A stretch of 27,605 nt of DNA from a virus (Duplodnaviria > Heunggongvirae > Uroviricota > Caudoviricetes). Positions 1,532 to 17,077 of the stretch are shown here, in pieces. Position numbers and translations under genes: made by a program. A model generated the notes under the pieces. The model made no database searches, was not told where the DNA came from, and was given only the letters and a program-made list of their open reading frames with translations. Location of the stretch: positions 1 through 27,605 of IMG/VR virus record IMGVR_UViG_2534681674_000034, one strand, 5' to 3'. The stretch's first letter is position 1; every line of letters begins with the position of its first letter.

Positions 1532-1741
1532 TTAATTTGAATACAATGCAATTCTCGAGGACTGAAGTTTCTCGCAATTAAAATTTATCAGTTTTACTTT
1601 CTGCTCTCTGGAAACGCCTGCTTCTTTTTTACCTGAGAGCATTTTTTCGCATTCTGATTTCGTTAGTTTAGATTTTGAATATCTTGTCCAGTTAGTAGGA
1701 GTGCCACCTTCCTTTTCAATAGTGGCGGTAATTTTATACAT
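1532..1741 (-). CDS. ydaC: YdaC-like small protein, 69 aa
   Basis: Translation MYKITATIEKEGG... Start chosen at the ATG preceded by GGAGGT (5-6 nt spacing) rather than the longer track ORF. Confidence 0.65.
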   Translation of the reverse strand: MYKITATIEKEGGTPTNWTRYSKSKLTKSECEKMLSGKKEAGVSREQKVKLINFNCEKLQSSRIALYSN

Positions 1742-4295: not shown

Positions 4296-5186
4296 TCAGG
4301 CTGCCAGATCATTATTTCCGATGGAAGCATAATAAGCTTTTTCTGCTTCTGCCGGAGGAATATGGCCCAGCCTTTCCAGCAATCGTCGATTGTTATACCA
4401 GTCCACCCACGTTAGTGTGGCCAGTTCCACTTCTGTCCGGTTTTTCCAGCTATTACGGTGTATTACCTCCGCTTTGTAAAGACCATTGATGCTCTCAGCC
4501 ATCGCGTTGTCATACGAGTCGCCAGTACTCCCTGTTGATGCCAGTAATCCGGCTTCCTTAAGCCGCTGCGTGTAGGCCAGCGATACATACTGAGAACCTT
4601 TATCACTGTGATGGATTGTGCCGGACGGCCGACGGGCCCACAACGCCTGCTCCAGTGCATCCAGCACGAATGTTGTTTCCATGGATGATGAGACCTGCCA
4701 TCCCACGATGTATCCGGCGAACACATCAATGATGAACGCCACATAAACGAAGCCCTGCCATGTGCTTACCCAGGTAAAATCAGCCACCCACAACTGGTCT
4801 GGACGTTCTGCCACGAACTGACGGTTTACGCGGTCGCATGCGGCAACGGCTTTCCGGCTGACGGTAGTGCGGACCTTTTTACCCCGGAGAACACCGGCAA
4901 GTCCCATAACTGCCATGAGACGTGCCACAGTGCATCTGGCCACTCTGATACCTTCCCGTAACAACTGACGCCAGACTTTACGCACACCGTATACCTGGTG
5001 ATTTTCATCGTATACGCGCTGTATCTCTTTCTTCAGCCAGTCATCGTGCTGCGCACGGGCACTGCGTTTATCCGGATGATGTCGCTGTTGCTGACAATGG
5101 TAATACGTTGACGGGGCAATATGCAGTTCGCTGCATACCGGTCCGACCCCGTACTGCTCACGCAGCTTATCCAGCAGTGGCATCAT
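4296..5186 (-). CDS. IS3-family transposase OrfB (DDE catalytic part), presumably made as OrfAB fusion by -1 frameshift
   Basis: 296-aa [19 protein letters not shown]... recognised as IS629-type OrfB. Overlaps orfA at GGAAAAAATGATG. Confidence 0.9.
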
Positions 5187-5509
5187 TTTTTCCAGAGGCG
5201 GTCGAACTCCGCCTTCGCAAAATAAGCGGAAGCCTGGCGAAGGATATCGTTACTGCGGCGCAGTTCACGATTTTCACGTTCCAGCTCTTTCAGACGCTGA
5301 CGTTCAGCGCTGGTGAGCCCACCATCACCGCCCCCGGTATCCCGCTCATGCTGGCGAACCCAGACACGCAGAGTCTCCGGCGTACAGCCAATCTTTGGGG
5401 CAATGGAACAAATTGCCGCCCACTGTGAGTCATATTCATCCTGACTTTCCAGAACCATACGAATCGCCCGCTGACGGACTTCGGGGGAAAAACGAGTATT
5501 TTTAGTCAT
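5183..5509 (-). CDS. IS3-family transposase OrfA (HTH part)
   Basis: 108-aa [26 protein letters not shown]... recognised as IS629-type OrfA. Ends in an A6 run where orfB begins. Confidence 0.9.
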
Positions 5510-7632: not shown

Positions 7633-8205
7633 AATTATCTCCATTTTTACAAATGAATTTTGTCGATGCGGTGCCTGGTGCCTCCAGGTGACGTTAACCA
7701 GTTAACAATTAACGCCGGATACAGAGAATCCACCCATAACACTGTTTTTGGTTTTAACTGTTCCGCGTGCGCTTAGCCGCATTCACCGCATCACAAAATT
7801 CACTTTAAAAAGGGCGGCAGAGCAGTCACGGAGTAAAACTGATACCGCCAAACGTCACCAGAAAATTGATAACAGAGGGCGTTGCAGCGGGGTTGTCACT
7901 TAAGCGTATGGTCAACCTGACAACCCGGTGTCCTCAACGGGGGAAGGAATAACCCCGCCATACTTACCGCCGCGCCATTTCGCGGATTGCCACAACCGGA
8001 AGCGCACGGTCGACGAAAATTTAACGACAGGCTATCTATGAACCAGCTACCTCGCCGTGCGCTTTCGCGTTATGGTCTGACTTTTCAGGGAAATATCCTT
8101 TCAGTAAACTGTCAGTGCCGGATGCTCACCCGTGTCCGGCGCACGCACTCCACCTCACCCGTGGAGAACTACTTAATTACCAACCTTAGCTTCGTTGGTT
8201 AGCTA

Positions 8206-9014: not shown

Positions 9015-9662
9015 TTATAAGTTGAACTGTACACCTTTTGCTACGGCAACAATTTTACACTCTGGTGTAAGTAAGGATGACTGATAGCGTGGATTGAGAG
9101 GGCTTAAATACACAAGCTTCCCATCAATAACTAATTTCTTTATAGTCATAGATGGTTCATTTTTAAGCGGATCCGGAACTATTACAGCGACGATGCTGCC
9201 ATTTTTATAACTTTCTCCTGGCCTTAGGATCACAGTAGCACCAACTGGGATACTCGGTGATCCTGATGGGTTATGCATTGTGTCATCAGGCATTGAAACG
9301 GCAAAATCACCTTCCTCGACATCAAAGAATGTGGTGATCCTATCGACATTTCCCATTGTTTTCTCTCCTTTTAAGATTAGGAAAGAAATCGCCTCACCCC
9401 ACGAAAGGTAGGGGATCTTGGTGCCTGAGGTACTTTGTACAAAAGATAATTCAGGAGACGATACTCCATATAGGAGATAGGACTCAGTAGTTCCTAATGC
9501 CTGGGCTAACTTACTTAGAGCTTTGCTACCTGGTTCGTTTAGATCTTTCTCCCAGTACCCTATAGTAACCCCAGTCACGCCTGAAAGCTTACCCAGTTCT
9601 ACTTGGGTCAGCCCCTTATCTTTTCTAAGTCTCTTAAGCCTGATGCCAAGGCTTTCCATCAT
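9015..9662 (-). CDS. CI-like prophage repressor (N-terminal HTH-XRE, C-terminal S24 LexA-like autopeptidase)
   Basis: Translation has an HTH region (GLTQVELGKLSGVTGVTIGYWE) and a C-terminal S24-like region. Start set at the first ATG (9662) with AGGAGA upstream; the track ORF starts at a TTG at 9674. Confidence 0.85.
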   Translation of the reverse strand: MMESLGIRLKRLRKDKGLTQVELGKLSGVTGVTIGYWEKDLNEPGSKALSKLAQALGTTESYLLYGVSSPELSFVQSTSGTKIPYLSWGEAISFLILKGEKTMGNVDRITTFFDVEEGDFAVSMPDDTMHNPSGSPSIPVGATVILRPGESYKNGSIVAVIVPDPLKNEPSMTIKKLVIDGKLVYLSPLNPRYQSSLLTPECKIVAVAKGVQFNL

Positions 9663-9689
9663 TTTCTCCTGCAAATTGAATATAAATTA

Positions 9690-10474: not shown

Positions 10475-11512
10475 ATGGCTAATGCCTGGCTCAGATTGTG
10501 GCATGACATGCCAAATGATCCCAAATGGCGAACCATTGCCAGGGTCTCAGGACAGCCAATCGCAACAGTGATGGCGGTGTATATCCACCTTCTGGTGAGT
10601 GCGTCACGAAATGTCACGACATGTCACGGCGTGTCACTACGTGGTCACATTGATGTCACGACGGAAGATTTAGCAAGTGCGCTTGATGTGACGGAAGACG
10701 TGATTGATTCAATTTTGCATGCAATGCAGGGGCGAGTTCTGGATGGTGATCTTATTTCCGGATGGGAAAAACGCCAGGTGATGAAGGAGGATAACGGTAA
10801 TGTTTCGCAAACCGCAAAATCCCCGGCAGAGCGCAAGAGAGCGCAGCGGGAGCGGGAAAGACTGCGGAAGCAGAACACTGATTGTCACGATGAGTCACGA
10901 CGCGTCACGCATATGTCACGACAAATCACGACAGATACAGATACAGATAAAGAATTAAACCCCACACATAACGCGCGCATGCGCGAGAGTGCTACGACCG
11001 GTGAGTTGAATGACGCGTCGTTGCAGACAGCCGAACCTGAATACCTGGACGGCCTGAGCGAACCGATCGGGAAATTTCCGATGACTGGAGTCTGGCAACC
11101 GTCGCCGGATTTTCGACAGCGGGCAGCAGTGTGGGGTATGGCTCTGCCTGAGCCTGAGTTTACACCTGCTGAGCTTGCCGCATTCCGGGATTACTGGATG
11201 GCGGAGGGGAAGGTTTTCACGCAGGTTCAGTGGGAGCAGAAATTTGCCCGCCACGTGCAGCACGTCAGGGCACAGGTAAAACCAGTCAGCAAGGGGGTAA
11301 GCCATGCAGCATCAGGTGGCACGGCATCACGGGCAGTTCAGGAAATCCGGGCAGCACGCGAACAGTGGGAACGTGACAACGGATTTATCAGCAACGGAAA
11401 CGGCCTGGAAGCTGTGGGAGCTTATGGGGGAGGTGTATTCGAACCGCTGGACACAGAAGAACGGGGCCGCACCTTCGAAGCTCTGGATTGCACAGATTGG
11501 CGCGATGACTGA
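10475..11512 (+). CDS. Replication initiator (lambda O-like functional analogue) with internal origin iterons
   Basis: 345-aa ORF from the ATG with GAGG SD (track gives a GTG at 10469). Contains two iteron arrays within the coding sequence. Followed by a P-like gene. Confidence 0.7.
   Translation: MANAWLRLWHDMPNDPKWRTIARVSGQPIATVMAVYIHLLVSASRNVTTCHGVSLRGHIDVTTEDLASALDVTEDVIDSILHAMQGRVLDGDLISGWEKRQVMKEDNGNVSQTAKSPAERKRAQRERERLRKQNTDCHDESRRVTHMSRQITTDTDTDKELNPTHNARMRESATTGELNDASLQTAEPEYLDGLSEPIGKFPMTGVWQPSPDFRQRAAVWGMALPEPEFTPAELAAFRDYWMAEGKVFTQVQWEQKFARHVQHVRAQVKPVSKGVSHAASGGTASRAVQEIRAAREQWERDNGFISNGNGLEAVGAYGGGVFEPLDTEERGRTFEALDCTDWRDD
10603..10659. repeat. Iteron array 1: six GTCAC(G) repeats at about 10-11 bp spacing
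   Basis: GTCAC at 10603, 10613, 10623, 10633, 10644, 10655. Confidence 0.7.
10884..10948. repeat. Iteron array 2 (four GTCACG plus one ATCACG at ~10 bp spacing) followed by GATACA x3 AT-rich tract
   Basis: GTCAC at 10884, 10894, 10904, 10915; ATCAC at 10925; then ACAGATACAGATACAGATAAAGAATTAAA. Confidence 0.65.
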
Positions 11513-11966
11513 GCAGCAAATCCGGCAGGTCTGCCGCCAGTGCATGGACTGCTGCCGGGCGGGTGAAACATGGCCTCCGGACCTGGCTGAGTTTGTGGCA
11601 CTGATTTCGAAAAGCGGAGCCAATCCATTCGGTCTGACGGTGGATGCTGTGATGGAGGAGTACTGCCGCTGGCGCAATGAGTCCTGGCGATACGACGGAA
11701 GTGATAAGTACCCGTGGTCTCAGCCTGTGCTGTATCACATTTGCCTCGAGATGCGTTCAAAGGGGATTGAGCGCCAGATGACCGAAGGGGAATTAAAACG
11801 GCTTGCAGAACGGCAACTGACGAAATGGGCAAAGCATGTTAGTAACGGCCTGAGCGTTCCGCCAGTCCGGCGACAACTGGCGGCCCCCAAACGCCCGTCG
11901 GGGCCAACGCCAATTGAGTTGCTGAAACAGGAATATGAACGCCGGAAAGCGGCTGGTTTTGTTTGA
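11304..11966 (+). CDS. Lambda P-like replication protein (helicase loader); start uncertain (11304, 11424 or 11505)
   Basis: C-terminal two-thirds resemble lambda P from memory (FVALI...YCRWR...YPWS...). ATG at 11304 has AGGGGG SD but overlaps the O-like ORF by 209 nt. Confidence 0.65.
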   Translation: MQHQVARHHGQFRKSGQHANSGNVTTDLSATETAWKLWELMGEVYSNRWTQKNGAAPSKLWIAQIGAMTEQQIRQVCRQCMDCCRAGETWPPDLAEFVALISKSGANPFGLTVDAVMEEYCRWRNESWRYDGSDKYPWSQPVLYHICLEMRSKGIERQMTEGELKRLAERQLTKWAKHVSNGLSVPPVRRQLAAPKRPSGPTPIELLKQEYERRKAAGFV

Positions 11967-14052: not shown

Positions 14053-14940
14053 ATGACCACTATAACCAAAGAGCGACTGCTGACAATCAAGCAGTGGCGC
14101 GAAACATACGGACCGGGTAGCAACGTTGTGCTTCCAGCAGAAGAAGCGGAAGAGCTGGCACGGATTGCGCTGGCATCACTGGCAGCAGAGCCGGTGGCAA
14201 AGATTATAGCTCATTACCCATTAGGAGTTGACGTAGGCAAACAAAAATTCGTACAGGCCATTAGAGAGCTTCCTGACTTTGGCGGATATCTATTTGCCGC
14301 CCCTCCAGCGCCGATAGTGCCGGAAGAAATGTATTGGCAGGATGCGCCAGTTGAAGGCAGCAGCAAAGCGGCTGCATACGCTACAGGCTGGAACGATTGC
14401 CGCGAAGCCATGCTTCAGTCCGGAAACTTTCGGGAAAATAAAGATTCGTCAACCAATAATTTTCGGAAAATCCCGGAAGCGTCAACCAGCTCTCCGGTAA
14501 CTCCGGCTCTTCTGCCTGGTGGTTTCACCATTGAGGAGGCGAAGGAATTACATGAAGACCTGGTACGCAGCCACATAAGCAAGGCCTTAAGTGGCGAAAA
14601 GATGAAAAAGAAAGATCGCGATGCTGATTTGCGCTGGATTCATGGCGTTATAGTTCAGGCAGCGTGGTTTGTAAAAGCATCACTGGAGCAGAATGCACTA
14701 TCGGGCAACTATCCGGTAACTCCGGATAGTTGGATAAGCTGTAGTGAGCGAATGCCGGATACCAAAACAGCCGTTCTTGTTGCCAGGGATTTTGGCAGGA
14801 AAGGTGACTGGCGAATGAAATGGGCGACTTACATCCCGGGGCATCCTGACGCTAATGATGGGTGGATAATACCTGGTGCGTCGTGGATACCATCACACTG
14901 GATGCCTCTACCAGAACCGCCGCAGGAGGTGCGCCAATGA
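14053..14940 (+). CDS. DUF551-domain phage protein
   Basis: 295-aa ORF, AAGGAG SD. C-terminal WISCSERMPD...WMPLPEPP segment resembles the DUF551 family from memory. Confidence 0.65.
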   Translation: MTTITKERLLTIKQWRETYGPGSNVVLPAEEAEELARIALASLAAEPVAKIIAHYPLGVDVGKQKFVQAIRELPDFGGYLFAAPPAPIVPEEMYWQDAPVEGSSKAAAYATGWNDCREAMLQSGNFRENKDSSTNNFRKIPEASTSSPVTPALLPGGFTIEEAKELHEDLVRSHISKALSGEKMKKKDRDADLRWIHGVIVQAAWFVKASLEQNALSGNYPVTPDSWISCSERMPDTKTAVLVARDFGRKGDWRMKWATYIPGHPDANDGWIIPGASWIPSHWMPLPEPPQEVRQ

Positions 14941-15020
14941 ACTGGCCTGAAGCATTTGCAATTACAGGCGTTGCTATGGCTATCGCTTTTTTAGTATATG
15001 TTATTTGTCGGTGGGGGTAA
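14937..15020 (+). CDS. Tiny hydrophobic peptide, 27 aa (below ORF-track cutoff)
   Basis: Hand translation MNWPEAFAITGVAMAIAFLVYVICRWG. ATG overlaps the DUF551 stop (ATGA). Confidence 0.3.
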   Translation: MNWPEAFAITGVAMAIAFLVYVICRWG

Positions 15021-15055: not shown

Positions 15056-15160
15056 ATGTCGGATGATATATCACTGGCAATGGAAGGTGCGCTGGCTGTT
15101 GTTGCTGTTGTGGGCGTTTACTGCCTGGTTGTGTTTTTGATGGATCGACTAGGGAACTGA
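15056..15160 (+). CDS. Tiny hydrophobic peptide, 34 aa (below ORF-track cutoff)
   Basis: Hand translation MSDDISLAMEGALAVVAVVGVYCLVVFLMDRLGN. Strong AGGAGGG SD. Confidence 0.35.
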   Translation: MSDDISLAMEGALAVVAVVGVYCLVVFLMDRLGN

Positions 15161-15406
15161 ATTCATTACGATATGGGAATTCCCATATCGGGTAAAAACG
15201 GTTTGCGGTAAAGCGAGAGTTAAGTAGAATTGCTGCGGGTGCTTGAGGCTATCTGCCTCAGGCATGAACACCAAAAGGCAGATAGAGAAAAGCCCCAGTT
15301 AACATTACGCGTCCTGCAAGACGCTTAACATTAATCTGAGGCCCAATCTATGTCTCACAAATGTAGGTTAGCCTCTTACGCGCCGAAAGGCAAGGAGAAG
15401 CAGGCT

Positions 15407-15562
15407 ATGAAGCAGCAAAAGGCGATGTTAATCGCCCTGATCGTCATCTGTTTAACCGTCATAGTGACGGCACTGGTAACGAGGAAAGACCTCTGCGAGG
15501 TACGAATCCGAACCGGCCAGACGGAGGTCGCTGTCTTCACAGCTTACGAACCTGAGGAGTAA
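15407..15562 (+). CDS. hok: Hok/Gef-family type I toxin (HokD/RelF-like), 51 aa
   Basis: Translation MKQQKAMLIALIVICLTVIVTALVTRKDLCEVRIRTGQTEVAVFTAYEPEE. AAGGAG SD. ORF extends 19 codons further upstream in frame to an ATG at 15350. Confidence 0.85.
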   Translation: MKQQKAMLIALIVICLTVIVTALVTRKDLCEVRIRTGQTEVAVFTAYEPEE

Positions 15563-15630
15563 GAGACCTGGCGGGGGAGAAATCCCTCGCCACCTCTGAT
15601 GTGTCAGGCATCCTCAACGCACCCGCACTT

Positions 15631-15660
15631 AACCCGCTTCGGCGGGTTTTGTTCTTTTTG
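15631..15660 (+). terminator. Intrinsic terminator after hok (copy 1 of a duplicated terminator)
   Basis: AACCCGCTTCGGCGGGTTTTGTTCTTTTT: GC stem with TTCG loop and T-run. Confidence 0.7.
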
Positions 15661-15806
15661 TGAAAAAAATTCCCTTAAAGGAGATTTTTTTAACTAAAAA
15701 GGTTTACTTTGCTTTCGTATATGGTAAATTTTAGGAATTAGAATTTAAGCGCCCATCAGGCTTGCGTTAGGCAAGTCTGCTAAATCAACAAATTGAGGAT
15801 AAAATC

Positions 15807-16166
15807 ATGGCACTCACTGAATTCGGTAAGGCCGTTAGAAAAGCGAGGATCGATACTGACAGTACTCTTCTGACTATGTCTCAAGAACTGGGCACTACGC
15901 CAGCGTTTCTTAGCGGTTTAGAAACTGGTAGCAAAAAAATACCTCTGAAGTGGGTTAAGAAGATTGATTCTTACTTCAAGGCCAAAGGTGTAGAAATTGA
16001 AGGGTTACAGGAGTTAGCGGCAGTTGCGAATGACTCAGTTCCAGTAAACGGTTTGTCTCAGCAACAGAAAATGCTTGTAGCGGGATTCGCTAAGTCGCAG
16101 TTTACGCCGGAACAGCTAAAGAGTTTTGCAGATTTATTGCAAAAGATTAATAACAATGAGGGGTAA
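15807..16166 (+). CDS. HTH-XRE family transcriptional regulator
   Basis: 119-aa ORF, GAGGA SD. HTH-like segment LLTMSQELGTTPAFLSGLETG. Confidence 0.75.
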   Translation: MALTEFGKAVRKARIDTDSTLLTMSQELGTTPAFLSGLETGSKKIPLKWVKKIDSYFKAKGVEIEGLQELAAVANDSVPVNGLSQQQKMLVAGFAKSQFTPEQLKSFADLLQKINNNEG

Positions 16167-16168
16167 TT

Positions 16169-16645
16169 ATGTATCAAATGAGAGGTAACAGGGTGTCACC
16201 GATGCAAGAAGAAGAAATAGCCTACAGAGCTATAAACTTCTGTAATGCTATTGGTCTTACAGCCTCAAAGCGCAAAAGAAAGCGTTATGATATGTTCTTT
16301 GAAAGCCTGTCAATTTATGGGGTTACTCTTGACGTCAGGACCGACAAAGAGTGGGAGGCTCTGACGTATGATCTAACTATCGGACATTGTGACCCCGCTT
16401 CTCTAACAATTACGGTTCCCAATAAAATATATGTGAATGCTTGCCTTGGGGAAGAGCATGCGCTTGCTGTTATCTTCCACGAGCTAGGTCATTTGCTTCT
16501 TGGACACAAAGCAGTTTTACACTTTTCAGTTAAAGAACCTACTCGTATTGAGGATGCAGAATGGCAGGCAGATACATTTGCGGATATCGTACTGGAAACA
16601 ATTGGCGTGAGAACACAACAGATGTCGTTCGATTTTTATATGTAA
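16169..16645 (+). CDS. ImmA/IrrE-type zinc metallopeptidase (COG2856-like)
   Basis: 158-aa ORF with HELGHLLLGH (HExxHxxxxH). GAGGGG SD. Abuts the XRE gene with a 2-nt gap. Confidence 0.75.
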   Translation: MYQMRGNRVSPMQEEEIAYRAINFCNAIGLTASKRKRKRYDMFFESLSIYGVTLDVRTDKEWEALTYDLTIGHCDPASLTITVPNKIYVNACLGEEHALAVIFHELGHLLLGHKAVLHFSVKEPTRIEDAEWQADTFADIVLETIGVRTQQMSFDFYM

Positions 16646-16809: not shown

Positions 16810-16962
16810 ATCATGGCAATGGGTACCTGTCGCAAATGTGGCTGTCCATGTGAGATCATTTTTCGCTACTCTGTGTGTGTAGATGGTGTAATGCGCCACG
16901 CGAAAAAAGGGAAGCCTTTCCCGATCCCACTTTGCAGTTGTAGTGGCAAGCACGCAGCTTGA
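16810..16962 (+). CDS. Small Cys-rich (zinc-ribbon-like) protein, about 50 aa
   Basis: MAMGTCRKCGCPCEIIFRYSVCVDGVMRHAKKGKPFPIPLCSCSGKHAA. Start inferred at the internal ATG of the 60-aa track ORF. Confidence 0.4.
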   Translation: MMAMGTCRKCGCPCEIIFRYSVCVDGVMRHAKKGKPFPIPLCSCSGKHAA

Positions 16963-16978
16963 TGTTCAGTACTGACAA

Positions 16979-17008
16979 AACCCGCTTCGGCGGGTTTTGT
17001 TTTTTCCT
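16979..17008 (+). terminator. Intrinsic terminator (copy 2, 23 bp identical to copy 1)
   Basis: AACCCGCTTCGGCGGGTTTTGTTTTTTCC. Confidence 0.7.
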
Positions 17009-17077
17009 GGCATTCTGGTTTACAATTCGCACGTCAGCCTGAACAACTGGCACCTGCTGCGCCAGCAGAGAAAGACG

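Follow-up and report, generated by a model that had tools for sequence, protein, structure and literature searches.

The locus at 15203..15660 of the analysed DNA (the window, a stretch of 27,605 nucleotides from a Caudoviricetes virus) is very probably an intact hok/mok/sok type I toxin-antitoxin module of the hokC/hokD/hokW clade, whose regulation would follow the R1 paradigm as judged from the sequence and the predicted RNA structures. An earlier sequence-only reading had recognised the locus correctly, and all sequence features that it listed were recovered at the given coordinates; the locus is real, but it is an already known, ordinary copy of the hokW/hokD type. By homology, the gene product was assigned as HokD and the locus type as hokW-like. 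For the window copy, the analysis established the sequence anatomy, the predicted folds, the covariation and the homology, and the elements are listed in Table 1.

Setting, toxin gene and transcript of the locus

As the sequence-only reading had proposed, the locus is located in the nin-equivalent (P-to-Q) region, with a lambda-P-like replication gene (11304..11966) on one side and DUF968-RusA-Q (17358..19330) on the other, and relBE is absent at the hok locus of the window, unlike in the relB-relE-hokD arrangement of K-12. A DUF551 gene and small ORFs are the upstream neighbours of the locus, and an XRE/ImmA pair comes after it. Of 5426 complete E. coli genomes, 4020 carry the module, the median number of hok-related matches in a genome being 2, and lambda-like prophages are its host elements in most E. 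coli genomes. In RefSeq and in phage records it is annotated as hokD, MokW, mok or hok; the RefSeq name for a 99% identical copy is hokD.

The 51-aa product had been taken for a Hok/Gef-family (HokD/RelF-like) toxin. It gave a full-length domain match to Pfam HOK_GEF (PF01848) of 82.9 bits against a cut-off of 22, and its sequence was identical to that of K-12 HokD. The internal hok SD AGGAG and the hok ATG were nearly invariant among the aligned loci. The terminator postulated behind the gene was recovered as a hairpin followed by a T tract. The TACG motif of the Tyr47 hairpin was kept in 28 of 29 loci, and the sole exception carries a hard-coded TGT Cys codon; two pairs of the 3-bp stem covary (CG in 19 loci and UA in 9; GC in 16 and AU in 11). 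Cys30 is hard-coded in the window Hok, and the sequence presents, at the position opposite this Cys, a TadA-type TAC within TACG in a small stem-loop, which makes A15546 a candidate TadA editing site. Editing at the equivalent Tyr residue has been reported for K-12 hokD, which has the TACG site in common with the window (PMC5630033).

Table 1. Positions of the elements of the hok/mok/sok locus in the window
Feature	Position	Strand	Basis
hok/mok promoter: -35 TTGCGG, 16-nt spacer, -10 TAGAAT	15203..15208, 15225..15230	+	conservation among homologs
tac (translational activator element), mRNA 5' end, GGGUGCUUGAGG	15237..15248	+	start of RF01794 match, folds, covariation
Conserved leader stem-loop, 10-bp perfect stem	15249..15285	+	both folds; covariation; part of first helix of RF01794
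Sok RNA, ~77 nt, putative ends; 5' single-stranded tail GUGAGAC, long stem-loop, GGGGCUUUUCUCUAU tail	15282..15358	-	projected from annotated K-12 sokC
ucb (upstream complementary box, anti-SD), AAGCCCCAG	15290..15298	+	folds; entropy 0.25 bits
Sok/target stem tip, palindrome GCGTCCTGCAAGACGC	15309..15324	.	apical 6 bp of predicted Sok stem
mok initiation region: SD GAGG and ATG	15338..15341, 15350..15352	+	conservation, folds
mok ORF, 70 codons, in frame with hok, stop codon common to both	15350..15562	+	ORF reading; K-12 mokC/hokC, Sp5 orf74
Sok-target hairpin loop CUCACAA	15354..15360	+	loop of SD/dcb hairpin (trimmed fold); complementary to Sok 5' tail
Sok promoter: -35 TTGCCT, 17-nt spacer, -10 TAACCT	15393..15388, 15370..15365	-	conservation; match to Sp5
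dcb (downstream complementary box), GCCUC	15371..15375	+	pairs with mok SD GAGGC in trimmed fold
hok SD AGGAG; hok CDS (51 aa)	15393..15397; 15407..15562	+	Pfam PF01848; identity to K-12 HokD
Tyr47 TAC hairpin, UACG motif	15540..15554; TAC 15545..15547; TACG 15545..15548	+	candidate TadA A-to-I site A15546 (Tyr to Cys)
3'-UTR stem-loop GGCGGGGGAG-AAAU-CCCUCGCC	15570..15591	+	both folds; 87.5% paired across loci
fbi (fold-back inhibitory element), CCUCAA-C-GCACCC	15612..15624	+	tac pairing in full-length MFE; compensatory changes
Intrinsic terminator of hok mRNA	15631..15660 (stem 15631..15648, then T tract)	+	hairpin; common to K-12 hokD up to 15659

A generic sigma-70 consensus scan of 15100..15800 called no promoter. 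This result was set aside as uninformative, since the thresholds of the scan exclude both TTGCCT/TAACCT and TTGCGG/TAGAAT, and the promoters were placed instead by conservation and by the mutagenesis reported for prophage Sp5. Measured against the consensus, both the hok and the Sok promoters are weak. Among the 22 homologs listed, nearly all have a T-A-n-A-A-T-like hexamer (variants TAGAAT, TATAAT, TACAAT and TATATT) about 6 nt before the conserved GGG(U/C)GC 5' end, and the hok promoter of the window is identical in the functional Sp5 locus. The hok mRNA would thus be expected to start near 15237. Rfam RF01794 matched 15237..15412 with 120.4 bits (gathering score 59). We rejected this plus-strand 'sok' match as the antitoxin gene; in K-12 the model matches the hok-sense strand, opposite the annotated sokC and sokB, and RF01794 is a hok-sense leader model.

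Predicted folds and the Sok antisense RNA

The Sok RNA and the leader elements had been regarded as impossible to place with certainty, but all of them were placed by homology, folding and covariation. The predicted 419-nt mRNA had a folding energy of -174.7 kcal/mol (z = -7.2 versus shuffles), and folding of the locus, which the sequence-only reading had recommended, predicted a closed full-length, an open trimmed and a metastable nascent state. In the full-length MFE structure, a 12-bp pairing of tac with fbi closes the molecule and ucb is paired to the mok SD region CUGAGGC. The pairing changes in the trimmed fold to tac with ucb and mok SD with dcb, and the nascent leader is predicted to form a metastable 5' hairpin. 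As modelled for the window, these tac/fbi, ucb/SD, tac/ucb, SD/dcb and metastable-hairpin states are those described for R1 (PMC9841398). The stem-loop at 15570..15591 is probably the 3' end protector of the trimmed mRNA, by analogy with R1, in which mutations of the last stem-loop in the truncated mRNA abolish toxicity (PMC9841398).

The folds were compared with 29 aligned loci from Escherichia, Kluyvera, Photorhabdus, Pantoea, Citrobacter and Pseudocitrobacter. The full-length structure was paired at 82.6%, versus 39 to 46% when it was slid, with 44 pairs changed on both sides, and the open leader at 82.4% versus 36 to 47%; the tested structures were derived from the MFE of the window itself, so that these percentages are inflated compared with the slid controls, and relatedness among the loci is ignored by the shuffle controls. 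The tac/fbi helix was 90.2% paired with 5 pairs changed on both sides, one of its pairs being U-A in 21 loci versus C-G in 8 and unpaired in none. The 10-bp hairpin at 15249..15285, formerly a candidate element, proved to be a genuine leader stem (CTATCTGCCT at 15249..15258 with AGGCAGATAG at 15276..15285); it was 88.6% paired, with 3 pairs changed on both sides. In the open form, the tac/ucb helix was 96.5% paired, and each of the five SD/dcb pairs was formed in at least 28 of 29 loci. One Kluyvera locus (L034) has a non-homologous leader and adds noise; it was retained in the pair counts and left out of the entropy and antisense-fold statistics. Taken as models, both the closed and the open hok mRNA folds are supported by covariation in 29 loci of six genera.

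Column entropy gave a similar distinction, with 0.2 to 0.3 bits for the regulatory blocks versus 1.1 to 1.5 bits for neighbouring nucleotides. The mean was 0.20 bits for tac and 0.24 to 0.25 bits for the nearly invariant Sok -10 and -35 blocks; the mok SD (0.32 bits) and ATG (0.23 bits) were also nearly invariant, and the spacer between them was variable. Since the regulatory blocks are conserved and the pairs are kept by compensatory change across genera, purifying selection on the regulation is indicated. The block of the Sok-target loop was one of the leader blocks with the highest variability (1.14 bits). CUCA in this loop fits the YUNR U-turn motif, a putative U-turn by analogy with R1 hok/sok.

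The predicted fold of the Sok RNA had an energy of -32.2 kcal/mol (z = -6.25), and the antisense strand was more stable than the sense strand in 28 of 28 homologs, by a mean of 10.7 kcal/mol. The palindrome at 15309..15324, also formerly a candidate, is a real element, namely the tip of the Sok stem; this tip is an insertion of about 18 nt compared to K-12 hokC and is present in 14 of the 29 aligned loci, including Sp5 hokW. Judged from the sequence, Sok would start at 15358. The minus-strand TTGCCT-N17-TAACCT had been described as weak and promoter-like. It is indeed weak by consensus, but it is not a mere promoter-like candidate, since its hexamers are those of the sokW promoter validated by mutagenesis in Sp5 (PMC8621323); one spacer difference was found from probe YO-597. 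In the 'pro-less' construct of Sp5, primers YO-421/422 turn TAGGTTAG into CCGGCTCG at the -10, and the antitoxin activity was lost; the sokW RNA of Sp5 was detected by Northern blot and exhibited antitoxin activity (PMC8621323). At the level of sequence, the window has a putative cis-encoded Sok gene that has a promoter of its own and is complementary to the region where mok translation starts.

Relatives of the locus and the frame of mok

The hokW-mokW-sokW locus of Sp5/VT2-Sakai (and of 933W-type phages) is 93.2% identical to the window over 15193..15634. Like the window, it has the promoters, tac, ucb, an in-frame 70-codon mok, a 77-nt Sok with the extended tip, dcb and fbi, and it resides in a lambdoid prophage. 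It differs in the C-terminus of the toxin (...FTAYEPEE in the window, ...FVDYESEK in HokW), in the sequence after fbi including the terminator, and in the neighbouring genes. Furthermore, about 7 of 21 positions of the Sok 5' tail and target loop differ between the two, so that the kinetics may differ. [quoted passage not shown] Silencing of sokW renders it toxic, and it influences both the timing of lysis and the phage yield; its toxicity and its RNase III and Hfq dependence have been shown, and HokW made from its own ATG alone is toxic (PMC8621323).

Alignment with chromosomal hok loci, also recommended by the sequence-only reading, related the window to two K-12 loci. K-12 hokD (relF) of the Qin cryptic prophage encodes the same 51-aa peptide and is 98.1% identical from 15393 to 15659, which spans the hok SD, the CDS, the 3' UTR, fbi and the terminator. 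However, it lies behind relBE and lacks everything upstream of 15393, that is, the hok promoter, tac, ucb, the mok start, the Sok target and the Sok promoter. Both loci are located in lambdoid prophages with a DUF968-family gene downstream (ydfU in K-12, 17358..18407 in the window). E. coli hokC (gef)-mokC-sokC is 75% identical between the -10 region and a point just beyond the stop codon, with the same order of elements. It lacks the ~18-nt Sok stem tip, giving a SokC of 59 nt, its Sok -35 is TTGACC rather than TTGCCT, and in K-12 an IS186 element interrupts the copy about 20 nt past the stop codon, so that fbi is lost. The hok/mok/sok locus (parB) of plasmid R1 has the same set of elements, three-state mRNA logic, 3' trimming and Sok acting through mok (PMC9841398), while HokW and R1 Hok are about 44% identical as peptides (PMC8621323). 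On its plasmid, the R1 locus serves post-segregational killing, whereas the prophage ortholog has been shown to help in lysis.

The mok frame is open from the ATG at 15350, with GAGG 8 nt upstream, through 15407 to the end of hok, as had been noted. The in-frame extension had been contrasted with plasmid hok/sok, but it is not a departure from the family; the same arrangement was found in K-12, where mokC and hokC are annotated with a common stop codon and starts 57 nt apart, and in Sp5/VT2-Sakai, where 'orf74, gef homolog' is annotated as the same single 213-nt ORF. Among 51 related loci scanned from several genera, an SD-preceded upstream ATG was found at -56 to -58 in 40: 30 have it at -57, in frame, 8 at -58, out of frame, and the other 2 at -56. 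The two -56 loci have a 19-codon upstream ORF, and fusion is not possible at either -56 or -58. The hok copy of an IncFII plasmid, matched by RF01794 with 87 bits, also exhibited the in-frame 57-nt spacing, contrary to the expected out-of-frame mok; we take this copy to be R1-type, its Hok matching the R1 Hok peptide used as tblastn query. The mok of R1 starts 58 nt upstream of hok, out of frame (PMC9841398), compared with 57 nt and in frame in the window. By sequence, the in-frame mok is the majority state in the clade, and a 1-nt indel separates it from the out-of-frame state of R1. Where residues of the N-terminal extension are conserved, they coincide with dcb, the Sok -10, the Sok -35 and the hok SD, and are thus RNA or DNA constraints.

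Alternative readings and the proposed control of the module

A decayed remnant could be expected from K-12, where four of five hok loci have been reported inactive (PMC5630033, citing Pedersen and Gerdes 1999); of the two K-12 loci checked here, hokD is without its leader and hokC is interrupted by IS186, and the RefSeq name in the present case is hokD. Nevertheless, the window has everything upstream of 15393, where the K-12 hokD homology begins. The sequence-only reading had held that inactivating features of decayed chromosomal copies would speak against the locus; the window locus was searched for an IS insertion (the case of K-12 hokC), a leader deletion (K-12 hokD) and tac mutations (L012, a decayed copy visibly different in tac), and it has none of them. 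It likewise contains no frameshift or stop codon, and tac/fbi is intact. Decay is already refuted at the sequence level, and its probability is close to nil. The locus may instead be structurally intact but functionally quiescent like chromosomal hokA, hokB and hokC, that is, transcribed, never activated, and carried as selfish or hitch-hiking prophage DNA. Intact anatomy does not guarantee R1-like killing; intact chromosomal hok/sok loci gave neither post-segregational killing nor a rifampicin response (10.1101/2025.08.07.668861), and the weak promoters and the near-ubiquity of the module in E. coli would fit quiescence as well. The low entropy of the regulatory blocks with compensatory changes across genera, and the toxicity and lysis effects of the 93% identical Sp5 locus (PMC8621323), argue against it, and we consider it unlikely.

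The 70-aa ORF could also be the real, single toxin gene, with no separate Mok and the 51-aa Hok a convention of annotation. The frame is continuous, its SD is good, VT2-Sakai has it as one CDS, and the in-frame state prevails in the clade. However, in close relatives whose Hok is the same or nearly so, the upstream ATG lies at -58 (8 loci) or -56 (2 loci), and the start position and SD are still conserved; the internal hok SD and ATG are nearly invariant, and conservation of the extension is explained by dcb, the Sok promoter and the hok SD. In R1, mok stop codons downstream of the hok start leave toxicity intact and only upstream ones affect it (PMC9841398), and HokW from its own ATG is toxic (PMC8621323). 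This single-toxin reading is thus very improbable. Since mok is in frame, a 70-aa N-terminally extended Hok should nevertheless also arise from starts at 15350. Two nested products from two starts, a 70-aa Mok-Hok with a basic N-terminal extension and the 51-aa Hok, could then exist, and the long form might modulate the short one, as in the dual-start holin/antiholin pair S107/S105 of phage lambda; we give this only slight credence. If it is true, the recurring 1-nt indel would switch the long-form modulation on or off.

For the intact module, transcription of both RNAs, 3' trimming, RNase III cleavage, toxicity and the biological role would be as in its relatives. The weak hok promoter would produce a stable mRNA of about 420 nt, from ~15237 to the terminator near 15655. 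The nascent transcript would be silenced by the metastable 5' hairpin, and the finished one by tac/fbi pairing of its two ends, the mok SD being covered by ucb. Once slow 3' trimming had removed fbi, tac would pair with ucb and the mok SD would enter the dcb hairpin, which would expose the mok start and the Sok-target loop. The unstable, minus-strand Sok of ~77 nt would pair with this loop first through its 5' tail, and the full duplex over the mok start would block mok translation and lead to RNase III cleavage. Since hok translation depends on ribosomes reading mok through the hok SD, Sok would silence hok too. When the supply of Sok stops, the trimmed mRNA would be translated, and the membrane peptide Hok would depolarise the cell. 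The Sp5 ortholog is activated on prophage induction (PMC8621323); other triggers may be the loss of the element or an infecting phage that shuts off transcription.

The discovery value is small, since the module is annotated, is present in roughly three of every four complete E. coli genomes, and has an experimentally characterised ortholog in Sp5. The analysis adds a nucleotide-level map of all regulatory elements for the window copy, which represents the complete form, the K-12 reference hokD being the truncated one. For the family, the frame relation of mok and hok is a free variable toggled by 1-nt indels, which fits the view that the translation of mok matters, and not its product.

Identity, distribution and surroundings of the hok locus

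The 51-aa peptide scored 82.9 bits against the Pfam Hok/Gef family (cut-off 22) and all of its residues were the same as those of E. coli K-12 HokD, which bore out the HokD-like toxin of the sequence-only reading. The other features listed there (the ORF, the GAGG, a 10-bp stem, a palindrome, minus-strand hexamers and the terminator) were likewise all recovered in place. In RefSeq, a copy 99% identical to the window gene carries the name hokD; its prophage and the window are collinear over a region that starts upstream of hok and includes RusA (93.6% identity).

The module is already known and is very widespread. At a coverage of at least 80%, the full module (15225..15660) was present in 4020 of the 5426 complete E. 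coli genomes, mostly with 95 to 99% identity. It was also found in 77 phage records, where it is annotated as MokW, mok/hok, gef 'phage maintenance protein' or host killer; of 766 matching plasmid records, 448 covered at least 80% of the query. A recent survey puts the enrichment of hok in prophages at about four-fold (10.1101/2025.08.07.668861). A 99.5% identical copy was observed in the record named Actinobacillus phage vB_Apl-pPE4 (PP818812.1), and assemblies of Acinetobacter idrijaensis and Xanthomonas pisi include contigs of 275 to 431 nt with Hok sequences of 96 to 100% identity. Contamination with E. coli DNA, or a wrongly assigned host, probably explains these copies.

Features of the hok locus and of its neighbourhood (window coordinates)
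Feature	Position	Strand	Remarks
CI-like repressor	9015..9674	-	Pfam
YdaT, then protein with DnaT domain	between CI-like repressor and lambda-P-like gene		Pfam
Lambda-P-like protein	11304..11966		Pfam
DUF1627, DUF977	between lambda-P-like gene and DUF551		Pfam; in the order given
DUF551	14053..14940		Pfam
hok promoter	-35 15203..15208; -10 15225..15230	+	TTGCGG, 16-nt spacer, TAGAAT
tac	15237..15248	+	GGGUGCUUGAGG; 5' end of hok mRNA
mok SD (Shine-Dalgarno)	15338..15341	+	GAGG; sequence inspection
mok/hok ORF	15350..15562	+	70 aa; in-frame ATG 15407 gives 51-aa product
Sok promoter	-35 15393..15388; -10 15370..15365	-	TTGCCT, 17-nt spacer, TAACCT
fbi	15612..15624	+	CCUCAA-C-GCACCC; just 5' of terminator
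Terminator hairpin of hok mRNA	15631..15648	+	T tract directly 3'
XRE-like gene and ImmA/IrrE peptidase	15807..16645	+	directly 3' of hok terminator
DUF968, then RusA	between ImmA/IrrE gene and Q		Pfam
Q antiterminator	18776..19330		Pfam; late-gene activator

By Pfam assignments, the locus sits between the replication genes and the late-gene activator, and this gene order confirmed its placement in a nin-equivalent region without relBE. Two short plus-strand ORFs just 5' of the hok promoter (14862..15020 and 15056..15160) encode hydrophobic peptides of 52 and 34 aa; the homologous RefSeq prophage has an annotated hypothetical protein that the second matches in size and position. On the 3' side, the XRE-like product (119 aa) had no Pfam match here and is called helix-turn-helix in a homologous RefSeq record, and the ImmA/IrrE-type product is an M78 metallopeptidase of 158 aa. 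Such pairs are often tied to the regulation or defence of mobile elements. Three tRNA genes (19558..19806, plus strand) lie directly downstream of Q; a close relative has two (Thr, Gly) at the equivalent position and a different Q gene.

Further RNA elements were observed elsewhere in the window. A full-length RalA match (225 bits, 1557..1735, plus strand), RalA being the antitoxin of the ralR/ralA type I toxin-antitoxin system of rac-like prophages, makes a second RNA-antitoxin system in the window. DicF antisense sRNA (76.7 bits, 7812..7863, minus strand) and STnc100 sRNA (102 bits, 21179..21348, plus strand) are typical of Qin/Rac-like lambdoid prophages. An ALIL pseudoknot, a frameshift signal of the IS3 family, was matched with 121 bits at 5112..5228 (minus strand) between the overlapping minus-strand ORFs 4296..5186 and 5183..5509, which points to insertion of an IS3-family element into the early-left portion of the prophage.

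Folding and covariation of the hok mRNA

A hexamer similar to the hok -10 lies about 6 nt ahead of the conserved GGG(U/C)GC at the 5' end in nearly all of the 22 listed homologs. The predicted full-length mRNA (15237..15655; -174.7 kcal/mol, z = -7.2) pairs tac with fbi, and the ucb element GCCCCAG masks the mok SD region CUGAGGC. When the RNA was folded without its 3' end (15237..15608), the minimum free energy structure was rearranged: tac paired with AAGCCCC (15290..15296), and the mok SD GAGGC (15338..15342) paired with dcb GCCUC (15371..15375); in the resulting hairpin the mok AUG lies within the stem and CUCACAA (15354..15360) within the loop. The first 176 nt folded alone gave a hairpin of tac with the sequence immediately 3' of it. 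In this order, the three predicted folds are the states known as closed, open and metastable in the hok mRNA of plasmid R1 (PMC9841398).

A scan of species-representative genomes gave 53 loci, and 29 full-length loci drawn from these, the locus of the Stx2 prophage Sp5 and two plasmid loci were aligned (Escherichia, Kluyvera, Photorhabdus, Pantoea, Citrobacter, Pseudocitrobacter and further Enterobacteriaceae). Across the 29 loci, the closed structure was 82.6% paired, against 39 to 46% with the partners slid, and 44 pairs had changed on both sides, the tested structures being taken from the window itself. The tac/fbi helix was 90.2% paired with 5 of its 12 pairs changed on both sides, as in one pair that is U-A in 21 loci, C-G in 8 and unpaired in none. 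Pairing of the open leader was 82.4% (36 to 47% with slid partners) and that of tac/ucb 96.5%, and the five SD/dcb pairs were present in at least 28 loci. The slid controls and compensatory pairs are stronger evidence than the shuffle control, which ignores relatedness.

Column entropy was 0.20 to 0.32 bits in the tac, ucb, mok SD, mok ATG, Sok -10/dcb and Sok -35/hok SD blocks. The most variable leader part (1.1 to 1.5 bits) was the SD-ATG spacer with mok codons 2 to 5 (15344..15364), which encodes the Sok 5' tail and its target loop. This variability may reflect selection to keep co-resident copies specific; among E. coli genomes that had a match, the number of hok-related matches had a median of 2 and a maximum of 10.

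Rfam RF01794 ("sok antitoxin"; gathering score 59) matched 15237..15412 with 120.4 bits. It matches the hok-sense strand, here and in two comparison loci (L002, 602..754; L005, 1067..1218), opposite to the annotated sokC and sokB of K-12. What RF01794 models is the open fold of the hok mRNA leader rather than the antisense RNA.

Sok and the reading frame of mok

The sequence-only reading held that neither the leader elements nor Sok could be placed with certainty, and this was overturned by homology, folds and covariation. The perfect stem of 15249..15258 with 15276..15285 is the conserved leader stem. The palindrome (15309..15324) caps the Sok stem, as an insert of about 18 nt that hokC lacks and that 14 of the 29 aligned loci have. 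When the annotated K-12 sokC (16952..17010) was projected through the alignment, Sok started at 15358 on the minus strand, 7 nt past TAACCT, and ended near 15282. The predicted 77-nt RNA (-32.2 kcal/mol, z = -6.25) begins with a 7-nt 5' tail, continues as a long stem and ends in a GGGGCUUUUCUCUAU tail. In Sp5, the sokW/hokW complementarity is 71 nt (PMC8621323), and the Sp5 probe YO-597 differs from the window minus strand at one spacer position. The minus-strand hexamers, which the sequence-only reading described as weak, are the Sok promoter; in Sp5, antitoxin activity is lost in the promoter-less construct, where primers YO-421/422 replace TAGGTTAG (the -10) (PMC8621323). The Sok strand folded better than the sense strand in all 28 loci (mean gap 10.7 kcal/mol), since a G-U pair on one strand becomes a C-A mismatch on its complement, and this predicted asymmetry lends independent support to a real antisense RNA.

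The continuous frame from mok into hok was confirmed; however, it is not unusual for the family but the majority state of the clade, since an SD-preceded mok ATG stands at -57 in 30 of 51 related loci, at -58 in eight and at -56 (a 19-codon ORF) in two. K-12 mokC and hokC share a stop codon with starts 57 nt apart, and orf74 of Sp5 is the same 213-nt ORF. On the IncFII plasmid pMTY1886 (locus L007, 444..659), the mok ATG is 57 nt 5' of hok, in frame, and the Hok encoded there matches the R1 Hok sequence. In R1 itself, the mok ATG (nt 116 to 118) and the hok ATG (nt 174 to 176) are 58 nt apart and mok is therefore out of frame, so that the plasmid premise of the earlier reading was right for R1 (PMC9841398). 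By these coordinates, the frame relation appears to flip even between very close plasmid copies. A 1-nt indel in AAAGG(T)CAAGG makes the switch; the site falls within the Sok -35, which reads TTGCCT in the window and TTGACC where the additional base is present. What is conserved is the mok start position and passage through the hok SD, not the frame, in agreement with R1, where mok must be translated as far as the hok start but its product is dispensable (PMC9841398).

The Tyr47 codon TAC (15545..15547) lies within an invariant TACG in the hairpin 15540..15554, and two pairs of the flanking 3-bp stem covary (CG 19/UA 9; GC 16/AU 11). In the sole locus without TACG, on a Pantoea plasmid, Cys is hard-coded at this position. 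In K-12 hokD mRNA, TadA edits this residue (A-to-I) from Tyr to Cys (PMC5630033), and the introduction of the survey states that the equivalent Cys pair is required for HokB toxicity (10.1101/2025.08.07.668861). The window copy probably shares the TadA editing layer of control.

Relatives, alternatives and role

The nearest complete studied relative is hokW-sokW of Sp5 (VT2-Sakai; 93.2% identity over 15193..15634). K-12 hokD, behind relBE in the Qin prophage, matches only 15393..15659 (98.1%), which means that the leader retained in the window has been lost entirely from the K-12 reference copy. The K-12 hokC/mokC/sokC locus aligns with 75% identity; the match begins in the -10 region and ends shortly after the stop codon, at the point where IS186 splits the K-12 copy. 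A co-resident copy in E. coli ECMA0423 (locus L012, 326..760) has a mutated 5' end (…ATGACTGCATGTGGC versus GCGGGTGCTTGAGGC), a damaged ucb and an out-of-frame mok; in contrast to the window, its sequence marks it as a decaying locus.

Anatomy, predicted folds, covariation and homology are shown for the window copy, which is very probably an intact, regulated hok/mok/sok module working as in R1 and Sp5. The main rival, an unlikely one, is an intact locus that never becomes active, as the survey reports for chromosomal hokA, hokB and hokC (10.1101/2025.08.07.668861); against it stands the strong purifying pattern seen in the regulatory blocks. That the ORF is a single 70-aa toxin gene is highly improbable: relatives with mok out of frame contradict it, as does the conservation of the internal SD and ATG. 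Decay of the copy, which the window sequence contradicts, hardly deserves credence.

For the intact and regulated module, transcription, trimming, RNase III cleavage, toxicity and role would follow those of the studied systems. In Sp5, Sok RNA vanishes upon prophage induction, and deletion of the locus delays lysis and halves phage release (PMC8621323). By this analogy, the most likely role would be an early membrane hit that advances lysis upon induction; maintaining the prophage or excluding superinfecting phage would be alternative roles compatible with it. With mok in frame, the window copy should also make a 70-aa extended Hok.
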